Shown: positions 3,001-19,910, counted from the stretch's first letter. The stretch is DNA of 32,000 nt from Thermofilum pendens Hrk 5 (GCF_000015225.1 NC_008698.1:690001-722000); one strand, 5' to 3'. Translations and numbers: made by a program. Notes: generated from the sequence alone by a model not told the origin.

Positions 3001-4959
3001 ACGCCGACCGCGGGCTCGCTCACTGTAGGCAATGTCAACTTAGGCACCCTCTACGGCTACATAGTAGGACCCTACAACGTTACCACGAACGCTATATTCA
3101 ACGACGTGAGCCAGAGCCCCGACTGGTACAAGTTCTACGGCGGGACCTGGAACAAGTTCCGCGGACCGCAGGCGTGGATCGGCGCCAACTGGAACATGAC
3201 GCTGTGGAGCGGCGCGGCTAAGGTCGTCTACACCGCCGCCATGGAGGGCTTCTGTGTCAGCGTGACAGGCCCAGACTTCAGGGACAACCTCGTGCCGCTC
3301 GCCAACCAGCCCGTAACGGTGACCGTCCTCGGTGCCTCGGGTGCCTCCGCGGCTTTCGCCTCCGCGGCTACCGGTAGCGACGGAACGGTGACTATTAGCC
3401 CCGACAAGGGCGCCGCCGTAGCGACGCCCGTTGGTAGCCTGCCGGTGTTCACAGGCAAGGTAGCCTTCCTCGGCGTTACAGGCCTCAAGTACACTCTGTC
3501 CACGAAGCTCAACCTCGACGACGCGCTCGGCCTCAAGAACTACGGTATAACCACGGGCCAGGCGTTCGACCCAGACACGTTGTCGACGACTGTTAGCTTC
3601 AACGTTACCAACAACATGCCCGGCGGTACGTGCGTGGCGCTGAAGTGGGACGCCATAAAGGTGACGGTCTTCGACTGGAGCGGTAAGCCTCTGAAGAACA
3701 TGATGGTAGCCGCCATACTCAGGGAGCCCAGGGCCAAGGCTATTCCGAGCACTGCCGGCTTCACCGCGGAGAACGGTAGCGTGATACTCTACGTGCCGCC
3801 AGGCACGCAGAAGTACCAGCTCATCGTCTACTGGCGCGACAGCTACCTGCTGAGGGTTGCCGGCAAGATTCCGAGGGAGATAGCGATATTCGACACCGTC
3901 ACCGACTACGATACTCCGAGAACCTACGCGCCCGGTAGCGGCACGACGCTCGAAACCTTCGTCTACGTCGGCATAATAATGCTCAGGAACGCGCAGGGCC
4001 AGGCCCTGTCGCCCGACATACTCAGCAAGATAACGGTCGAGATACAGTGGCCAGACCTCGTAGTGACCACTCACAAGCCCGAGAACGACGGTAGAGTACC
4101 CATAATACTCAACAAGGACACCGCTAAGAGCTGGCCGCTCGACGCCAGCGCCGCGAGGAGCCCAGACACGCCTGCCTCCACGATCAGCCAGGCGCCTCTC
4201 GGAGCCTACAAGGTAACCGTTAACCTCGCCGGCGTAGGGACACTCGCCGTGCAGACCATCAAGATCGAGAAAGGCAGGTTCGAGACCAGCACGCAGATAT
4301 TCGAGGTTAGGCTCGACATCTTCGACGTCAAGCTGACGTTCACCTCGCCGTTCGGCACGCCGCTCGCCGGAGCAACTGTCACCATAACCAAGCCCGACGG
4401 TACAAGCATCACCGACAGCCTCGACAGCTCTGGTAGCATAACCGTCAAGGAGGTGCCTCCGGGCAACCTCCAGTACACAGTGAAGGACTGGAAGGGCATA
4501 GCGATAGGCTACTCCGGTAGCGTTGCGCGCGCCCCAGCCGTGGGCATTACCGTGCCGAAGATCGGCAAGCTGACGGTCAAGGTGCTCGGAGCCAGGGGCC
4601 AGGGCATCGAAGGTGCCACCGTCGCCATCGAGAATGTCGGCACCTTCACGACCGACGCTAGCGGCATAGTAAGCCTCGAGCTACCCAGCGGCACCTACGC
4701 GGTAACGGCGAGCAAGGGCGGGAGGACTGCGAGCGCCACCGCCACCGTGAGTGACGGCAAGGAGACCGTCACCGAGCTGAAGCTCGACATCTTCCTCACC
4801 ATCGCCGGCTGGGAGATGAGCAGCAGCGAGTTCCTCGGACTCATACTGCTCGTAGTGCTCCTCGTCCTAGTGCTCTTCATAATCGCCCACGAGTACGCTG
4901 TCTACAGGCGCCGCCGCCTCGCCAAGGTAATCGCTCCGGCAGAAACGCAGGCAAAGTAA
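1..4959 (+). CDS. Giant N-glycosylated cell-surface (S-layer-like) protein with C-terminal membrane anchor; 5' end lies outside the window
   Basis: Frame 1 is open from base 1 (tgt ata ctt gcc ..., no stop before the GTG at 76), so the 1627-aa ORF-track product is cut by the window edge. There are dozens of N-x-S/T sequons. Transthyretin/CarboxypepD_reg-like modules recur, e.g. GATVTITKPDGTSITDSLDSSGSITVKEVPPGNLQYTV and GATVAIENVGTFTTDASGIVSLELPSGTYAVTA. A single C-terminal TM helix FLGLILLVVLLVLVLFIIA is followed by the basic tail YRRRRLAK. Stop TAA at 4957-4959. Confidence 0.85.
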   Translation, partial: CILAYAIGTTDSTGKITLTIAQPGGVINQPTSGTYNMSVFWQAYGRTFLLYTTGSGQSGNTVLGLLNSTITLNYIWNFTFQAVTMINGQTVPLYFQDPEDATRADVAYFEVYLYGKTGAPIFTSVGDSQGKSQGWVLVPIYEVNIKPTLSPQCYHIEKQWNVALYKEVYWLLDQGQGQKLKVLVGKENVTLSYDSATDTLTATVKDLATGTTSTQTFTDAGHIGTLVDNAHTFLLQVAVKDICGNSLNNWQNPPISIELTSPSLGKLRAGKANPSGVAPEEGYSFGGSVYFWLPDLTLIYKEKMGIAAEIGGIQVFSEAFNTTTTGSITYTKPVSFTPFTLTGSNGVYTATIKVSIVPTKITIKTSGLIAVQPLQGAIVQISPLVGDPNTYTDANGNVALMPFQIVGGGTVGDGSGKPIIVRSGATNPGYLPVPYGLWSTGKVFTYTVRVLWALPGTEYYVDVTPDANTIELNLTKAIETGCTVQSFVLFAKVYVVNMKAVDLCNRPITSADDPNATLILTYTTPDGQTVQFPAGLGSNGTTFAAFVPGGSFAVKLFFKGVLLDPVSGPNPLVVSGNIGNISKATYTFPIGDLTLRITPWDVKEPLVNVSVLLEYFKAGARTYYESHVTGCDGTVTFTKVPFKVAANSKITVTITTRPDTPYIRHPKDDGLVIGKWDLTSLLNTTTPACNVGPIDVPTWVFSFTLEAVDHNGNVLKELPTSNGTAPVIVAINDTYTKNEYNVTQVCQAGPGCLCWPLINVNYQIFNSTNYLGTPWGNGISEARFKITGSQWMNSNYPHLFIAGAYYNFIVWYGGVMVYNYNFTLPAPSEPLDYSKVVTTVVLFNETTGATRTVETDKLDYTWVLANGGAVEHPIARLYGAPAWSGRYSVKLQLVTWVVNLDVYALSKIGAGLIPGLNVTLARNDTVNWKKLVGNYTAITKPTITLGAVAWSAVTGSDGKASLPVAIWQPKLKLANVKFGASITNVTVLAGKKYGTPNVPDTPTAGSLTVGNVNLGTLYGYIVGPYNVTTNAIFNDVSQSPDWYKFYGGTWNKFRGPQAWIGANWNMTLWSGAAKVVYTAAMEGFCVSVTGPDFRDNLVPLANQPVTVTVLGASGASAAFASAATGSDGTVTISPDKGAAVATPVGSLPVFTGKVAFLGVTGLKYTLSTKLNLDDALGLKNYGITTGQAFDPDTLSTTVSFNVTNNMPGGTCVALKWDAIKVTVFDWSGKPLKNMMVAAILREPRAKAIPSTAGFTAENGSVILYVPPGTQKYQLIVYWRDSYLLRVAGKIPREIAIFDTVTDYDTPRTYAPGSGTTLETFVYVGIIMLRNAQGQALSPDILSKITVEIQWPDLVVTTHKPENDGRVPIILNKDTAKSWPLDASAARSPDTPASTISQAPLGAYKVTVNLAGVGTLAVQTIKIEKGRFETSTQIFEVRLDIFDVKLTFTSPFGTPLAGATVTITKPDGTSITDSLDSSGSITVKEVPPGNLQYTVKDWKGIAIGYSGSVARAPAVGITVPKIGKLTVKVLGARGQGIEGATVAIENVGTFTTDASGIVSLELPSGTYAVTASKGGRTASATATVSDGKETVTELKLDIFLTIAGWEMSSSEFLGLILLVVLLVLVLFIIAHEYAVYRRRRLAKVIAPAETQAK

Positions 4960-5831: not shown

Positions 5832-6345
5832 CCTTCTCCGCCTGTTGCCGAGGGGCTTCTCGCTCGAGGTGTCGGGGCCCCCGGGGTCAGGTAGGAGGCT
5901 CTTCGTCGCCAAGCTCGTTGAGTACGTCGTGGAGAGGGGAGGAAGCGTTCTCTACGTGGACCTCGCCGGGACCCAGTACAGGCTCTGCAGGTCGGGTAGC
6001 GGGCTCTGCTCCTCGGAGCGCGTCACGTTCACTAGGCCAGGCGACCCCGCGGAGGCCGCCCTCCTCTCCTTCGTGGACGACGACCTCGTAGTCCTGGACA
6101 GCGTGCCCAGGCTCTTCTTCGGCTTCCAGGCCGGCTACCGCGAGAGGTGGGGCTACGTTTCCTCTGCGCTGCTGGGAGGGCTCCGGAGGGCCTCCAGGGG
6201 GCTCGGCTTCGTCGTGGTGAACTACCGGTCAGGCGAGAAGAGCTTCGGAGAGAGGGTCTTCGCGAGCTACTTCACGCACCGCGTAGCGCTGGAGGCAGGG
6301 GGGAAGGCCAGGCTCGTATACCCGTACGAGACCCCGATAGCCTGA
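5824..6345 (+). CDS. Second, degenerate RecA/RadA-like protein with a non-canonical P-loop
   Basis: ATG 5824 overlaps the upstream stop (TAG 5829-5831) by 8 nt, suggesting translational coupling. The P-loop reads GPPGSGRR (5875-5898), so the invariant Lys-Thr/Ser is replaced by Arg-Arg. LVVLDS is Walker-B-like, followed by a hydrophobic strand GFVVVNY. Codon usage matches its neighbours. Confidence 0.6.
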   Translation: MSSLLRLLPRGFSLEVSGPPGSGRRLFVAKLVEYVVERGGSVLYVDLAGTQYRLCRSGSGLCSSERVTFTRPGDPAEAALLSFVDDDLVVLDSVPRLFFGFQAGYRERWGYVSSALLGGLRRASRGLGFVVVNYRSGEKSFGERVFASYFTHRVALEAGGKARLVYPYETPIA

Positions 6346-6376
6346 GGAACGCCGCGCGGCGCCCAGGTGCGCTACC

Positions 6377-6384
6377 CTTATATC
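6377..6384 (+). promoter_or_regulatory. TATA box for the NFACT gene
   Basis: cttatatc lies 25-30 nt upstream of ATG 6409. Confidence 0.45.
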
Positions 6385-6408
6385 TCTCGCGCGCGGAGTT
6401 TTCCAGCA

Positions 6409-8241
6409 ATGTCTCGTGGCGCGGGTAGTTCGAGGAAGGTCAGCGTCCTAGACCTGGCTAAGATGTGGAGGCTCCTGGCGGGCTTCGAGGGCGAGAGGGT
6501 TTCGCGGGTCGCGCAGAGCGGCGACGTCTTCCTTTTAAGGTTTAGGCGCGGCGCCCTGGTCTTCTCCGCGGCTAGGGGGGTCGCCCCGTGCGTGGAGGAG
6601 TGCACCCTCCCGGGTAGCTGGGAGAAGCCGAGGTGGGCGGGGGAGGTCGAGGGTAGGCGCGTGGAGGCAGTTGAGCAGGTGTCGGGCGACAGGGTCGTAG
6701 CCTTCGAGCTCGGCCCGCGGAGGCTGGTCTTGGAGTGGGTGCGCGAGGGCAACCTCTTGTTGCTGGACGGCGGGGGAAGGATCCTCCGTGCTCTGAGGCA
6801 GAGGGAGATGAGGGACAGGGCGCTGAAGCCGGGGCACCAGTACGTCCCCCCGCCGAGGGTAGGCGACGCCTTCTCGGACGACCCGGGCTACCTCTACGCC
6901 AAGCTGGGGGAGTATTCGGGGCGCGCGGCCGTTACTGCAGTCTCTCTCGTCGCATCGCTCCCGGCGGAGCTCGTGTACGAGGCTATGTACCGCCTAGGGC
7001 TCGACCCGTCCGCGAAGGCCCGGGCCCTCGGCGAGGACGCGTTCAGGCGGGTCCTCTCGAAGAGCGTGGAGATATTCGAGGAGGCCCTCGCGGACCCGGA
7101 CAGGGGCTTCAGGGTCTCCGGGGAGGTCTACGCGTTCAATCCGGAGCACCTGGGCGCGGGCGCCGAGGAGGTGTCCTTCGCCAGGGAGTTCCCGGCGTAC
7201 GTGCTCGGCCTAATCAAGCGGGACCTCCAGCCCGAGGAGGGAGCCGGGGCGCAGGAGGCCATCAGGAGGGCTGTCGAGGAGCTTTCCAGGAAGGCGGAGC
7301 TCCTGTCGAGGCACTCGGCAACCGTGGACGAGGTTCTGGCGGCGTACAGGGGGCTCGTCGCGTCGAGGCTCCAGTGGAGCCTGGTGGAGGCGCGCCTCAA
7401 GGAGGCCTACCCGATCGTCAAGTCCGTGGACCCGGCGCGGTCCAGGCTCGTCTTGGAGCTGGAGGGCGTGGAGGTAGAGGTCGACGCGTCCAGGAGCGCC
7501 CTCTCGAACGCCGCGAGCTACTTCGAGAAGGCGAAGTCGGCGAAGAGGAAGCTCGCAGAGGCCTCCGCGGCGGTTGAGCGGAGCGCCGAGCCGGCGCCGG
7601 CGAGGCCCGCCAAGCCGGCGGCGTGGTACGCGCAGTTCCGCTTCTTCTTCACCTCCAACGGCTTCCTCGTAGTCGCGGGGAGGTCTGCTGGGCAGAACGA
7701 GTTGCTCGTGCGCAGGTACATGGAGCCCGGGGACATATTCCTCCACGCCGACATCCACGGGGCGGCGGCCGTCGTGCTCAAGACCGGCGGAAAGCAGCCC
7801 GGGGAGGCAGACATAGCCGAGGCGGCCCAGTTCGCCGCGTGCTTCTCCAGTGCGTGGAAGGGCGGGCTCTACGCGGTCGACGTCTTCTGGGTCCCCGCGG
7901 AGCAGGTGTCGAAGAAGCCGCCGAGCGGCGAGTACCTGGCGAAGGGTAGCTTCATGGTCTACGGGAAGAAGAACTACGTGAGGGGGGTGAAGCTGGAGCT
8001 CCTCGTGGGGCTGTGCCCGGGCGGCGAGCTCTGCGTCCTCCCGGCGCTGGCGAACCCCCGCGGGGGGTGCTTCCTGAAGGTAACCCCGGGCGTGTACAGG
8101 AAGGACCTGGCGGCCAGGAAGATAGCGGAGTTCGTCAGGAGGGAGTGCGGCGCGAAGGTCGGCGAAGACGAGGTCGCCAGGCTCCTCCCGGACGGGGGGT
8201 TCCACCTGGAGAGGTGGCGTCCGTGGCCGGGGAGTACCTAG
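6409..8241 (+). CDS. NFACT-family protein (archaeal Rqc2/RqcH/FbpA homolog, ribosome quality control)
   Basis: The N-terminal region (VSVLDLAKMWRLLAGFEGERVSRVAQSGDVFLLRF) resembles NFACT-N. A long coiled-coil middle follows. FFFTSNGFLVVAGRSAGQNELLVRRYMEPGDIFLHADIHGAAAVVLK is the NFACT-R1/DUF814 signature. The ORF track starts at GTG 6367; I prefer ATG 6409 because of the TATA box at 6377. Confidence 0.8.
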   Translation: MSRGAGSSRKVSVLDLAKMWRLLAGFEGERVSRVAQSGDVFLLRFRRGALVFSAARGVAPCVEECTLPGSWEKPRWAGEVEGRRVEAVEQVSGDRVVAFELGPRRLVLEWVREGNLLLLDGGGRILRALRQREMRDRALKPGHQYVPPPRVGDAFSDDPGYLYAKLGEYSGRAAVTAVSLVASLPAELVYEAMYRLGLDPSAKARALGEDAFRRVLSKSVEIFEEALADPDRGFRVSGEVYAFNPEHLGAGAEEVSFAREFPAYVLGLIKRDLQPEEGAGAQEAIRRAVEELSRKAELLSRHSATVDEVLAAYRGLVASRLQWSLVEARLKEAYPIVKSVDPARSRLVLELEGVEVEVDASRSALSNAASYFEKAKSAKRKLAEASAAVERSAEPAPARPAKPAAWYAQFRFFFTSNGFLVVAGRSAGQNELLVRRYMEPGDIFLHADIHGAAAVVLKTGGKQPGEADIAEAAQFAACFSSAWKGGLYAVDVFWVPAEQVSKKPPSGEYLAKGSFMVYGKKNYVRGVKLELLVGLCPGGELCVLPALANPRGGCFLKVTPGVYRKDLAARKIAEFVRRECGAKVGEDEVARLLPDGGFHLERWRPWPGST

Positions 8242-8915
8242 AGGCGGTGGCGAGCTTCGCCTCTCTCGAGGAGCTCGTGAGGCGGGCTGCGGGCGGCGTG
8301 AGTCTCGTCGTCTCGCTAGACGGGAGGTTGCTCCCGCTAGCATCCCTGCTCGGGCGGAGCACCGGTGGGACGCCCGTAGTCCTAACGGCGGCGAGGCCCG
8401 GGGTCGAGAGGGCCCTCAGGGAGGCGGCGCGTGGGAGGTACCTGGTTGTGAGGGGCGAGATGCTCGCCGCAACTCCTAGGAGCGTGTTCGTGTACCTGGC
8501 CCGCAGGGGGCTCGTGGAGCCCTCCCTCGCGGTGGCCGAGGTAGCCGCGGCGGGGGCGCCCTCGGTGGCGCCGAACACCTCCGTCAAGAAGGCCGTCTCG
8601 CTCCTCGAGGAGAGCGGGGCCATAGCGGTGGGAGTGAGGTCTAGGGGCCGAATATCGAAGGTGCTCACCGTCGTCGACTTCGCGGGGTACGCCCTTGAGG
8701 CGGGGCTCTCGAGGAGGGATCTCCTCCTCGACCCGACGCCCGTGTCAAGGGTCGACCCCGTAGTGGTCGGCGACCCGGCGGACCTGAGGTCGGGCTTCCT
8801 GGACGGCGTCTCGCGGTACTCGATGGCTGTAGTAGAGCTTGGATGCGAGGTCCTGGTGGACGAGTCCTCTCTGAGAAAGTACCTCGCTGCCAGGGTTGTA
8901 ACCGGCCGGAAGTAG
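8214..8915 (+). CDS. Hypothetical protein (possible winged-helix segment), overlapping the NFACT 3' end
   Basis: In-frame GTG at 8214 or 8223, 19-28 nt before the NFACT stop; the ORF-track extension back to 8013 lies inside NFACT. Codon usage (AGG, CTC, GAG; GC-rich third positions) matches real genes, whereas the antisense ORF 8135-9073 is S/P/T/R-rich. NTSVKKAVSLLEESGAIAVGVRSRGR looks HTH-plus-wing-like; this is a weak inference. I recognise no family. Confidence 0.55.
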   Translation: MASVAGEYLEAVASFASLEELVRRAAGGVSLVVSLDGRLLPLASLLGRSTGGTPVVLTAARPGVERALREAARGRYLVVRGEMLAATPRSVFVYLARRGLVEPSLAVAEVAAAGAPSVAPNTSVKKAVSLLEESGAIAVGVRSRGRISKVLTVVDFAGYALEAGLSRRDLLLDPTPVSRVDPVVVGDPADLRSGFLDGVSRYSMAVVELGCEVLVDESSLRKYLAARVVTGRK

Positions 8916-9010
8916 GCTTTTCGGGCCGGGTTTTTGCCGGGCGCCGCGTTTTCTACGCCCGTGGCTTTTCCCGGGCTTCGCCCCGTCGCCGCTACGGCAA
9001 AGTTTTTCCG
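8916..9010 (+). terminator. Cluster of five oligo-T tracts ending the NFACT/unknown transcription unit
   Basis: T4 at 8918-8921, T5 at 8931-8935, T4 at 8949-8952, T4 at 8966-8969 and T5 at 9003-9007, all embedded in GC-rich sequence directly after the TAG at 8913-8915. Confidence 0.45.
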
Positions 9011-9071
9011 CACCGACGCCGCTACACCCGGGGGGTGTACGCTGGAGTACAGGGAGGTAGTCGCCGACGGC

Positions 9072-9539
9072 ATGCTCGGGAAGCTCGCGAAGTGGCTCAG
9101 GATCCTCGGGGTCAGGGCTCTCTACGTGCGCGGCGCCCCGGACTCCGACGTGGAGGAGCTTCTCTCGAGGCTCGAGGACCCCGTTTTCCTCACGAGGGAT
9201 AGGGCGCTCTACGCGCGGCTAGCCTCGAAGGGGTTCAAGGCTGTACTTGTCCCGGAGGCCCCGGCGGAGGCCCAGCTCGCGTTCGTCCTTCCGCGGCTTG
9301 GGGTCGAGCCAGTCCTAGACATGTCGAGGACCCTTTGCCCCCTCTGCGGTTCAAGCCTTAAGCGGGTGGACGTGCGGGAGGTCGAGGGACTGGTGCCCGA
9401 GGGCGTGCTGTCCGCCTACGACGAGTTCTACCGCTGCACGGGGTGTGGACAAGTTTATTGGCGGGGCACGCATTTCTACGAAATGAAGAGAAAGCTCGAG
9501 AAGGTGTGGTGGCTGATCCATGGGAAGGTTGTCTGCTGA
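9072..9539 (+). CDS. Mut7-C-type PIN-like RNase domain protein with C-terminal zinc ribbon
   Basis: MLGKLAKWLRILGVRALYV ... FLTRDRAL ... CPLCGSSL ... YRCTGCGQVYWRGTHFYEM matches the Mut7-C (PF01927/DUF82) pattern, including the CxxC...CxxC ribbon and the YW-G-H motif. The ORF-track start 8934 adds 46 poorly coding residues across the T-tract terminator region, so I prefer ATG 9072. Confidence 0.75.
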   Translation: MLGKLAKWLRILGVRALYVRGAPDSDVEELLSRLEDPVFLTRDRALYARLASKGFKAVLVPEAPAEAQLAFVLPRLGVEPVLDMSRTLCPLCGSSLKRVDVREVEGLVPEGVLSAYDEFYRCTGCGQVYWRGTHFYEMKRKLEKVWWLIHGKVVC

Positions 9540-10161
9540 GGAGGGAGCTCTCCTCGTTCGGCTCGCTAGGAGGGCTGTCGAGGAGTACCTGGAGAACGCC
9601 AGGGTGATAGAGCCTCCCAGGGACACCCCGCCGTCCCTGCGCGAGAAGAGCGGCGTGTTCGTGACGATAGAGAAGATACTCGTAGACCCCCTCGCGCGCA
9701 GGGCGAGGAGGGAGCTGAGGGGGTGCATAGGCTACCCGGAGCCAGTGCTACCCCTAGCGGAGGCGACGATCCACGCGGCTATAGCGGCCGCGACCGAGGA
9801 CCCGCGCTTCCCGCCCATGACCCCCAGGGAGCTCGACACCGTGGTATTCGAGGTAAGCGTTTTAACCAAGCCGGAGCCCGTCGACTACAGGTCTCCCGAG
9901 GAGCTGCCCGACAAGATAAAGGTCGGCAGGGACGGCTTGATAGTGGAGTACGGGGCTGCCCGCGGCCTCCTGCTACCGCAGGTCGCGGTGGACGAGGGGT
10001 GGGACCCGGAGGAGTTCCTGAGCTACGCCTGCCTGAAGGCGGGGCTGAGGGACGACGCGTGGAGGCATGGCGGCTTGAAGGTCTACCGCTTCCAGGCCCA
10101 GATATTCGTGGAGACAACGCCTAAGGGGGACGTCGTGGAGCGCTTCCTCGAGGTAGTCTAG
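9520..10161 (+). CDS. AMMECR1 domain protein
   Basis: GVFVTIEK ... LRGCIGYPEP ... AAIAAATEDPRFPPM ... GLLLPQVAVDEGWDPEEFL are the conserved AMMECR1 blocks. The start overlaps the Mut7-C gene by 20 nt. Confidence 0.85.
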   Translation: MGRLSAEEGALLVRLARRAVEEYLENARVIEPPRDTPPSLREKSGVFVTIEKILVDPLARRARRELRGCIGYPEPVLPLAEATIHAAIAAATEDPRFPPMTPRELDTVVFEVSVLTKPEPVDYRSPEELPDKIKVGRDGLIVEYGAARGLLLPQVAVDEGWDPEEFLSYACLKAGLRDDAWRHGGLKVYRFQAQIFVETTPKGDVVERFLEVV

Positions 10162-18349: not shown

Positions 18350-19390
<1,041 letters not shown>

Positions 19391-19417: not shown

Positions 19418-19640
19418 AGTTTTAACAATCAGCTATATTACACCCGGTCTCCCAGCTCTACTTCTCTTCCAAGCCTTACGACTGCTCGCCCCCTTACTTA
19501 TCTCGTCGTTGCTGTTTAACGAGGCTTCTTCCAGTATACGTAGTCGTGCCTAACCCTCGGAGTTGACGCACATAGTATTCGCCTAGCATGCCGGTCGAGC
19601 TTTGCATGGTTTCGTGCGTAGCGGTTAAAAAGAGCTTTGT

Positions 19641-19694
19641 GCTCAGACCTGCACGAGTACGTCACGGCTCCAGCCTTCCGAGCGTCATCACAGC
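19641..19694 (-). ncRNA. Box C/D sRNA candidate (both guides complementary to tRNA-Glu)
   Basis: The minus strand reads GC-T-GTGATGA(box C, 19691-19685)-CGCTCGGAAGGC-TGGA(D')-GCC-GTGACGT(C')-ACTCGTGCAGGT-CTGA(box D, 19646-19643)-GC. The spacing 7+12+4+3+7+12+4 is the canonical archaeal geometry. A 2-bp terminal stem (GC/GC) leaves a 3-nt k-turn bulge. C'/D' keep the GA/GA sheared pairs. A TATA-like element lies ~30 nt upstream and a T5 tract ~10 nt downstream. Confidence 0.62.
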
Positions 19695-19717: not shown

Positions 19718-19729
19718 GATAAACCTTTT
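19718..19729 (-). promoter_or_regulatory. Possible BRE/TATA for the C/D sRNA
   Basis: The minus strand reads aaaaggtttatc, centred about 30 nt upstream of box C. Confidence 0.35.
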
Positions 19730-19789
19730 GCACAGTGCAATGCGTGAAAAGTGGGAGCTGGTGCCCCGGCCGGGATTTGAACCCGGGAT

Positions 19790-19818
19790 GTCCGCGCGTT
19801 GCGCCTGTCTGCGCCGCT
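19790..19818 (-). other. tRNA intron 2 (29 nt, variable loop, about position 45/46)
   Basis: Removing it leaves a 5-nt variable loop AGATC. The relaxed BHB has helix C60-G92, C61-G91, G62-C90 (A63/G89 mismatch), bulges AG|A and AC|A, and inner helix G67-C88, C68-G87, G69-C86. The alternative boundaries I tested pair worse. Confidence 0.5.
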
Positions 19819-19843
19819 CTTCGGCTCGAGAGGCCGATATCCT

Positions 19844-19860
19844 CTCAGCCTCGTGCAGGT
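19844..19860 (-). other. tRNA intron 1 (17 nt, D-loop, about position 20/21)
   Basis: Removing it joins the D loop to the GGAT 3' half of the D stem. A relaxed bulge-helix-bulge can be drawn: helix C18-G38, G19-U37, G20-C36, U21-G35; 3-nt bulges CA|A and AG|A; outer pairs C17-G42, C16-G43 (precursor numbering from the 5' end). Boundaries are good to about 1 nt. Confidence 0.55.
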
Positions 19861-19910
19861 TGACCGGGCTAGACGACCGGGGCTAGGAGGCGAGTAAGAA
19901 AGACAAGGCG

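Follow-up and report, generated by a model that had tools for sequence, protein, structure and literature searches.

A putative double-guide box C/D sRNA family from hot springs with complementarity to the anticodon arm and an intron of tRNA-Glu

The locus and its features

The window analysed here, a stretch of 32,000 nucleotides from Thermofilum pendens Hrk 5, carries on its minus strand a tRNA-Glu(CUC) gene with two introns and, beginning 64 nt downstream of it on the same strand, a sequence with the layout of an archaeal box C/D sRNA (table 1). Read from 19694 to 19641, the minus strand gives GC-(U)GUGAUGA-CGCUCGGAAGGC-UGGA-GCC-GUGACGU-ACUCGUGCAGGU-CUGA-GC, that is, box C, 12 nt, D', 3 nt, C', 12 nt and D, and this box-by-box reading is identical to the textbook layout claimed in the initial annotation. 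Boxes C (RUGAUGA) and D (CUGA) are situated near the ends, both spacers (C-D' and C'-D) have 12 nt where about 12 nt is typical of archaeal C/D sRNAs, and the ends form a terminal stem of two base pairs (GC/GC). A terminal stem of 3 bp or more, no further than 3 nt from the boxes, is present in 38 of 68 homologues, and the termini of archaeal sRNAs are frequently unpaired.

The TATA-like element and the T5 tract that had been proposed to flank the sRNA were both recovered, about 27 nt upstream and 10 nt downstream: the TTTAT core of the predicted promoter occupies 19723-19719 of the minus strand, and homologues have GGTTTATATT, AGTTTATATT or GGTATTTAAGG elements at an equivalent distance from the sRNA. 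The Rfam scan of the window detected no C/D family at the gathering threshold; the best C/D matches, both sub-threshold, were sR14 (13.1 bits) and sR30 (12.4 bits) against a threshold of 38.

Table 1. Features of the locus, in window coordinates
Feature	Position	Strand	Remarks
GAPDH gene	18350..19378	-	class I, bacterial-type enzyme; product 100% identical to a T. pendens protein
T5 run, possible terminator	19627..19631	-	10 nt 3' of the sRNA; not kept in every homologue
Putative box C/D sRNA	19641..19694	-	54 nt including the 2-bp terminal stem (GC...GC); from sequence reading
Box D	19643..19646	-	CUGA
D guide	19647..19658	-	ACUCGUGCAGGU; pairs with nt 1-11 of the D-loop intron, N+5 opposite intron G5
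Box C'	19659..19665	-	GUGACGU, degenerate; GUGAUGA in L121, GUGAAGA in L144
Box D'	19669..19672	-	UGGA
D' guide	19673..19684	-	CGCUCGGAAGGC; pairs with tRNA-Glu positions 30-41, N+5 opposite nucleotide 34
Box C	19685..19691	-	GUGAUGA
Promoter-like element	19719..19729	-	AAAAGGTTTAT; BRE/TATA-like, predicted from sequence, about 27 nt 5' of the sRNA start
tRNA-Glu(CUC) gene	19759..19883	-	two introns, encoded CCA; cloverleaf after in silico splicing
Intron 2	19790..19818	-	29 nt, variable loop at about 45/46; outside the sRNA interaction
D'-guide target	19823..19834	-	GCCUCUCGAGCC; tRNA positions 30-41, C34 at 19830 opposite a guide A
Intron 1	19844..19860	-	ACCUGCACGAGGCUGAG; 17 nt, D-loop at 20b/21; nt 1-11 (19860-19850) are the D-guide target

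The tRNA-Glu(CUC) gene and its introns

The tRNA-Glu gene was missed by ARAGORN and Rfam on the unspliced window, and removal of the 17-nt and 29-nt introns led ARAGORN to report tRNA-Glu(CUC). The same in silico splicing restored a tRNA-Glu(CUC) cloverleaf in nine loci. Orthologues of intron 1 occur in eight loci besides the window; after a first search of the family loci, further genes were reached through a conserved metallophosphoesterase neighbour. In the two loci L121 and L144 the tRNA-Glu exons are identical to those of the window. More distant metallophosphoesterase homologues (42-43% identity) were also followed by synteny, and their loci held a tRNA-Thr (L214) or no tRNA at all (L217) in place of tRNA-Glu.

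Direct reading of the sequence leaves the 5' splice site of intron 1 ambiguous by a single A, and the choice made in the initial annotation gives the better 4-bp central helix of the two options. This helix, as drawn by hand, pairs exon CGGU with intron GCUG (two G-C and two G-U pairs; GCCG in relatives), and the final six nucleotides of the intron make up its 3' strand together with a bulge. The bulges read CA/A and AG/A, and with its weak outer exon helix this hand-drawn fold is compatible with a relaxed HBh' structure. All tRNA-Glu(CUC) genes found have an intron that starts with (A/G)CCUG(C/U)(A/G)(C/U)(G/A)(A/G)G; the intron lengths in Thermofilaceae are 15, 17, 18 and 31 nt, and in all of them the 5' segment complementary to the guide and the 3' strand of the helix are retained. 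In the 18-nt introns the hairpin, a CCU/AGG stem with a GCACG loop, lies wholly under the D guide.

The other introns of these genes are less constant. Intron 2 is missing in L121, L144 and L207, and a different sequence occupies that site in L205 (Thermofilum sp. MAG), which suggests that position ~45/46 has seen recent and repeated intron gain. The tRNA-Glu(CUC) gene of L204 (Infirmifilum sp. NZ, CP094288.1) has, besides the intron at 20b/21, an additional one at about 26/27, and that of L209 has the 20b/21 intron together with one at about 38/39 that splits the D'-guide target and would therefore have to leave before the sRNA could bind both sites. A gene for tRNA-Glu(UUC) was sought in about 0.9 Mb of fetched loci and none was found there. 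In two Logan assemblies of the same species (L001 and L002) the contig breaks off within the T-arm of tRNA-Glu, probably because assembly stopped at sequence common to other tRNA genes, perhaps that of the UUC isoacceptor.

Pairing of the D guide with the intron

The D guide is an 11/11 Watson-Crick complement of 19860-19850, as originally reported and reproduced on recomputation, with a C-G pair at N+5, opposite intron G5 (19856); at least nine base pairs and a Watson-Crick pair at N+5 are expected of a functional guide. Apart from the guide itself, nothing on either strand of the 32 kb matches it better, and shuffled D guides equal the score of the real one on the window pre-tRNA in 0.015% of trials. 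The local scan for D targets over 82 family loci used a strict threshold and was positive for the window and L144 only; the targets of L121 and L167 emerged after their tRNA-Glu genes had been located directly. In the four loci tested (the window, L121, L144 and L167) the intron is the sole site in the locus at its score, the antisense of the guide itself excepted.

Six guide-intron pairs matched by genome are available (12, 11, 10, 10, 9 and 7+2 bp). The sRNAs of L144, the window and L121 pair with the intron of their own tRNA-Glu through 12 Watson-Crick pairs, 11 Watson-Crick pairs, and 9 Watson-Crick pairs plus one G-U, respectively; these three are close relatives and amount to about one observation. 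The L210 sRNA forms 10 Watson-Crick pairs with the tRNA of L207-L208 from the same organism, and the L211 sRNA, whose boxes are degenerate, pairs with the L213 tRNA on the same Infirmifilum MAG contig through 7 bp, a C:A mismatch and 2 bp. L167 represents another sub-family, with different tRNA exons and an intron at 27/28 instead of 20b/21; its sRNA pairs with its own tRNA-Glu intron through 8 Watson-Crick pairs and one G-U. Between the window and L167 both sides have changed at guide positions 7, 8 and 10, U-A becoming C-G, G-C becoming A-U and U-A becoming C-G. Co-variation of guide and intron in relatives, which had been named at the outset as a check on the proposal, is thus found in the form of matched pairs and of compensatory changes in a distant member.

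In about 75 family members, whose loci have no tRNA-Glu gene within reach, the D-guide target is a prediction. Part of the conservation of the 5' segment of the intron could reflect splicing structure, because the same segment forms the intron's own h' hairpin. Two other kinds of target for the D guide were examined and rejected. Comparison with the 31 tRNAs detected by ARAGORN in the loci gave nothing convincing. To helix 70/71 of 23S rRNA, which we take to read GACCUGCACGAAUGG in E. coli, the common family guide CCCGCGCAGG pairs by only about 8 bp, and the 3' 2.2 kb of 23S rRNA on the carrier contig L127 offers no convincing site.

The D' guide and the anticodon arm

The D' guide pairs with 19834-19823 through nine Watson-Crick pairs and one G-U, with an A:C mismatch at N+5, opposite C34; these values, too, are unchanged from those first given. 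Taken alone, this match is unremarkable, since many sites in the window score 9-10 of 12, and its weight comes from family conservation. The conserved core of the D' guide, GCUCG(A/G)AAGG, is complementary to CCUU(U)CGAGC. Against a presumed UUC isoacceptor with an identical stem the D' guide would form 10 Watson-Crick pairs and one G-U, and an A is found at N+5 in 65 of 65 homologues, which argues that the guide is tuned to U34 of tRNA-Glu(UUC). Assuming that the loop and stem of the UUC tRNA are the same as those of the CUC tRNA, we infer that the D' guide is built for U34 of tRNA-Glu(UUC). The only precursor seen with the D target is that of the CUC isoacceptor, which is mismatched at the N+5 position of the D' guide. 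Therefore the proposal that both guides target the adjacent tRNA-Glu stands for the D guide, which fits the intron, and only partly for the D' guide, whose N+5 base fits UUC and mismatches CUC, as the initial annotation had itself pointed out.

A family of homologues

The first homologue, L004 from an uncultured Thermofilaceae MAG, has both guides in recognisable form and came from a genome scan with the GAPDH protein, which otherwise returned mostly irrelevant loci, as the class I enzyme is common to many bacteria. A pattern that fixed only box C, the core of the D' guide, the GA of D' and the distal CUGA was then applied to hot-spring metagenomes and returned 120 loci with 91 distinct sequences, among them at least 65 distinct sRNA homologues. 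Because UGAUGA was part of the pattern, its presence as box C in the metagenome homologues is not independent evidence. The D guide was outside the pattern, so that the presence of its motif, ...CGNGCAGG, in all 65 sequences that combine a UUC-type D' guide with a canonically spaced C' box was not built in. The D guides of the family end in ...GCARRN, with the consensus nCCCGCGCAGGn, and their central positions vary by lineage: position 7 can be any of the four bases, and positions 2, 3, 8 and 10 are also variable.

The D' and C' boxes are related by tandem G-A/A-G pairs and by Watson-Crick pairing of C' position 5 with D' position 1. Across 66 homologues this combination is G-C in 30, A-U in 15, U-A in 12, C-G in one and G-U in one, the remaining seven being non-pairs, and the single G-U is that of the window sRNA. 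The suggestion that pairing is retained in the degenerate C'/D' of the window, by a C-G and a G-U pair, is correct, and at the second of these pairs the family covariation supports it. Spacers, C', D' and flanking sequence are otherwise strongly divergent among the members, and a C-to-D length of 48 nt is common to 40 of a subset of 62 distinct homologues.

The occurrence of the D motif in 65 of 65 sequences although it was not searched for, the C'/D' covariation and the variable spacers together establish that this C/D sRNA family is genuine and under selection, and that its two guides are coupled. The view that the window holds an unannotated C/D sRNA is upheld by the same pattern, in which boxes and both guides are kept while the spacers drift. 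The members that can be placed taxonomically are Thermofilaceae, and the locus adds a large unannotated sRNA family.

Two further groups of sequences were encountered beside the main set. Synteny led to Infirmifilum-type homologues at about 3810-3870 (+) in L210 and about 3870-3930 (+) in L211, in which both guides are kept and the boxes are off-consensus: box C is AUGAAGA, D' is CCGC or CCGA, C' is GUGAGGA or AUGGGGA, and in L211 box D is CGGA. Such degenerate boxes would escape pattern-based sRNA finders and raise the question of how much degeneracy is tolerated. A second, smaller C/D sRNA family (L117, L150 and L173, which are identical, L134 and L193) has the D' guide GCUCGAGAGG, which matches the CUC anticodon loop perfectly and puts C34 at N+5, and a D guide, ACGCAGGCCUUA, that also holds the complement of CCUGCG. 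From these complementarities it may be a sister of the main family with specificity for the other isoacceptor, possibly spanning the exon-intron junction.

Genomic context

The initial annotation described the sRNA as lying beside its substrate gene. As a general trait this does not hold: tRNA-Glu is next to the sRNA only in the T. pendens-like loci, that is, the window, L121 and L144, and in L167 the two are 11 kb apart, so that proximity is no part of the mechanism. The arrangement of the wider clade is a divergent HTH gene, the sRNA and GAPDH, and by this comparison of gene order the GAPDH gene appears to be the older neighbour of the sRNA, the adjacency to tRNA being specific to the T. pendens lineage. 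One sub-family (L088, L118, L127, L131, L140, L148, L154, L164, L190, L191 and L199) is located directly downstream of tRNA-Asn(GUU) with a gap of 8-90 nt. In the loci that reach far enough upstream (L127, L131 and L148) this tRNA-Asn follows the 23S rRNA gene, an order which suggests that rRNA, tRNA and sRNA may be co-transcribed there.

Functional interpretation

The reading that we favour, with a probability of roughly two in three (0.68), is that the window encodes an independently transcribed C/D sRNA of a widespread family, which would act as a double-guide sRNP on intron-containing pre-tRNA-Glu. The second guide matches an intron, which makes the precursor its necessary substrate. There the D target is located 5' of the D' target, 8-28 nt away and in cis, and the sRNA can consequently pair with both in one colinear antiparallel register. 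Double-guide sRNAs are reportedly most active when both targets are in cis (Ziesche, Omer and Dennis 2004).

According to this model the sRNA would be expressed from its predicted promoter and assembled into an sRNP, in which the D' guide would grip the anticodon stem-loop (30/31-40/41) with nucleotide 34 at N+5, the presumed catalytic target being U34 of the UUC isoacceptor. The gene for that isoacceptor would then be expected to carry the intron as well, and the neighbouring CUC precursor would be bound, yet left with C34 unmethylated. The D guide would pair with the first 9-12 nt of the intron, open the h' hairpin and cover the third nucleotide of the 5' splice-site bulge. Because the D guide covers this bulge nucleotide and the whole intron hairpin, the bound sRNP and the splice-competent fold look mutually exclusive. 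The intron could therefore serve as a docking handle that confers two-site avidity and specificity for the precursor, 2'-O-methylation of the wobble U34 would precede removal of the docking intron, and splicing would then strip the handle and free the tRNA. Intron G5 might be methylated as well, perhaps as a by-product; such a modification has no obvious value, as the nucleotide is discarded. In more general terms, the conservation of a guide together with an intron partner suggests intron-dependent wobble methylation at the precursor stage by a trans-acting RNP.

The same pairing could instead control splicing, the guide either masking the 5' splice-site bulge and h' or refolding a relaxed HBh' intron that is poorly spliced. 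The guide covers intron nucleotides 1-11, which include the third bulge nucleotide and the entire h' hairpin, and in Methanopyrus kandleri a tRNA-Glu intron at 20b/21 is cut inefficiently in vitro and is the last to be removed in vivo; both facts would suit a role in splicing. On the other hand, the D' guide of every one of the 65 homologues has at N+5 a base able to form a Watson-Crick pair with U34. This speaks for catalysis at position 34 as the function under selection, and we hold splicing control as the main function to be unlikely, bearing in mind that the two ideas are not mutually exclusive. For an rRNA or another stable RNA as the main target, with the intron match of Thermofilaceae secondary or coincidental, one can cite that double-guide sRNAs ordinarily aim at rRNA according to the literature, and that the D guide is conserved through very diverse lineages whose tRNA-Glu genes lay beyond the loci examined. 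The rRNA comparison covered the 3' 2.2 kb of 23S on the carrier contig L127, so that 16S rRNA and the 5' ~470 nt of 23S are where such a site might still lie; within the part compared, the best site reaches 8 Watson-Crick pairs plus 2 G-U. The variation of the central D guide positions by lineage is atypical for an invariant rRNA site and typical for a fast-evolving partner, the three compensatory changes in L167 speak against rRNA as the primary target, and the intron is the unique best site in all four loci tested. Taken together, this makes a conserved rRNA site quite unlikely to be what the guide serves.

The complementarity might also be a relic, the intron being derived from an sRNA-related or mobile sequence that no longer interacts with the sRNA. 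Introns with a similar 5' sequence do occur at two tRNA-Glu positions (20b/21 and 27/28), intron transposition has been reported in Thermoproteales, the D and D' guides are alike (CUCG...AGG), and on direct reading the 5' end of the intron resembles the anticodon arm. A relic, however, would decay, whereas the pairing persists where the neighbouring protein is only 58-65% identical, the changes are compensatory and the remainder of the intron diverges in length and sequence; a purely historical origin of the match is accordingly very improbable.

Relation to known systems

The double-guide sRNP proposed for pre-tRNA-Glu has several partial precedents. Pyrobaculum sR51 is listed as a tRNA-Glu wobble guide, sR27 and sR26 of the same genus are assigned to Gln U34 and Trp C34, and an sRNA of Sulfolobus acidocaldarius is aimed at U34 and G18 of tRNA-Gln. 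The window sRNA resembles these wobble guides in box architecture, 12-nt guides, the N+5 rule with nucleotide 34 at N+5, and a trans-acting gene with its own (here predicted) promoter; the resemblance to sR51 concerns its listed target. It differs in the second guide, which in Pyrobaculum and Sulfolobus is an orphan or matches the body of the mature tRNA and here matches an intron. In Pyrobaculum about 80% of the tRNA-targeting sRNAs have a second guide that lacks a target in mature RNAs, and targets had been sought solely in mature sequences.

The C/D RNA encoded in the intron of pre-tRNA-Trp (Haloferax volcanii, Pyrococcus), which guides Cm34 and Um39, likewise ties wobble methylation to an intron-containing precursor and directs two guides to one pre-tRNA. 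There the intron is itself the guide RNA; in the present case the guide has a gene of its own and targets the tRNA-Glu intron, which at 15-31 nt is much too small to accommodate a C/D RNA. The H/ACA sRNAs Sso1, Sto1, Sac1, Mse2 and Ape7 guide formation of pseudouridine 35 in pre-tRNA-Tyr(GUA), and they offer the example of a trans-acting guide that pairs with the anticodon stem-loop and an intron, the modification being intron-dependent (as we suppose it to be here). They belong to another RNP class, catalyse pseudouridylation next to a canonical 37/38 intron and use a single continuous guide pocket, unlike the two separate guides of the window sRNA.

The initial annotation considered a D-loop intron an unusual target for a guide; the D-loop intron in tRNA-Glu itself has a precedent, since both tRNA-Glu isoacceptors of M. 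kandleri carry one at 20b/21 that is removed after the canonical intron. The likeness to M. kandleri extends to the tRNA species, the insertion site and, going by the fold drawn by hand, the relaxed bulge-helix motif; the M. kandleri intron, present in both isoacceptors and removed late, has no described guide RNA partner. The order of events required in L209 follows the same logic, in that another intron has to be out before the step that involves the docking intron. No trans-acting C/D guide with complementarity to a tRNA intron came up in a literature search, several older papers being outside that search. C/D sRNAs that guide tRNA wobble methylation, including that of tRNA-Glu (sR51), are known already, and the intron-matched second guide appears new.

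Two old questions, why short archaeal tRNA introns occur at odd positions and what orphan C/D guides are for, are tied together by this locus. It is possible, although doubtful, that the tRNA-Glu intron owes its retention, and even its shift from one position to another, to its role as the place where the second guide of a wobble-methylation sRNP docks. If the docking idea generalises, many orphan guides of archaeal C/D sRNAs that target tRNAs would recognise pre-tRNA introns, leaders or the trailers of split tRNAs, and guide RNAs would be one of the selective forces that keep non-canonical tRNA introns, from Thermoproteota to Methanopyrus.

Additional observations

Two features of the window outside the sRNA and tRNA genes deserve mention. 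Positions 6001-10000 have a G+C content of 0.67-0.68, compared with 0.53-0.62 elsewhere, and are without a match to an RNA family. The GAPDH protein is 82-93% identical across lineages in which identity falls to 40-55% for the other proteins encoded nearby; for L121 and L144, the closest relatives, those neighbours are 73-80% identical. The nearest relatives of this GAPDH outside Thermofilaceae are scattered across many bacterial and archaeal phyla, which hints at horizontal transfer or unusually slow evolution.
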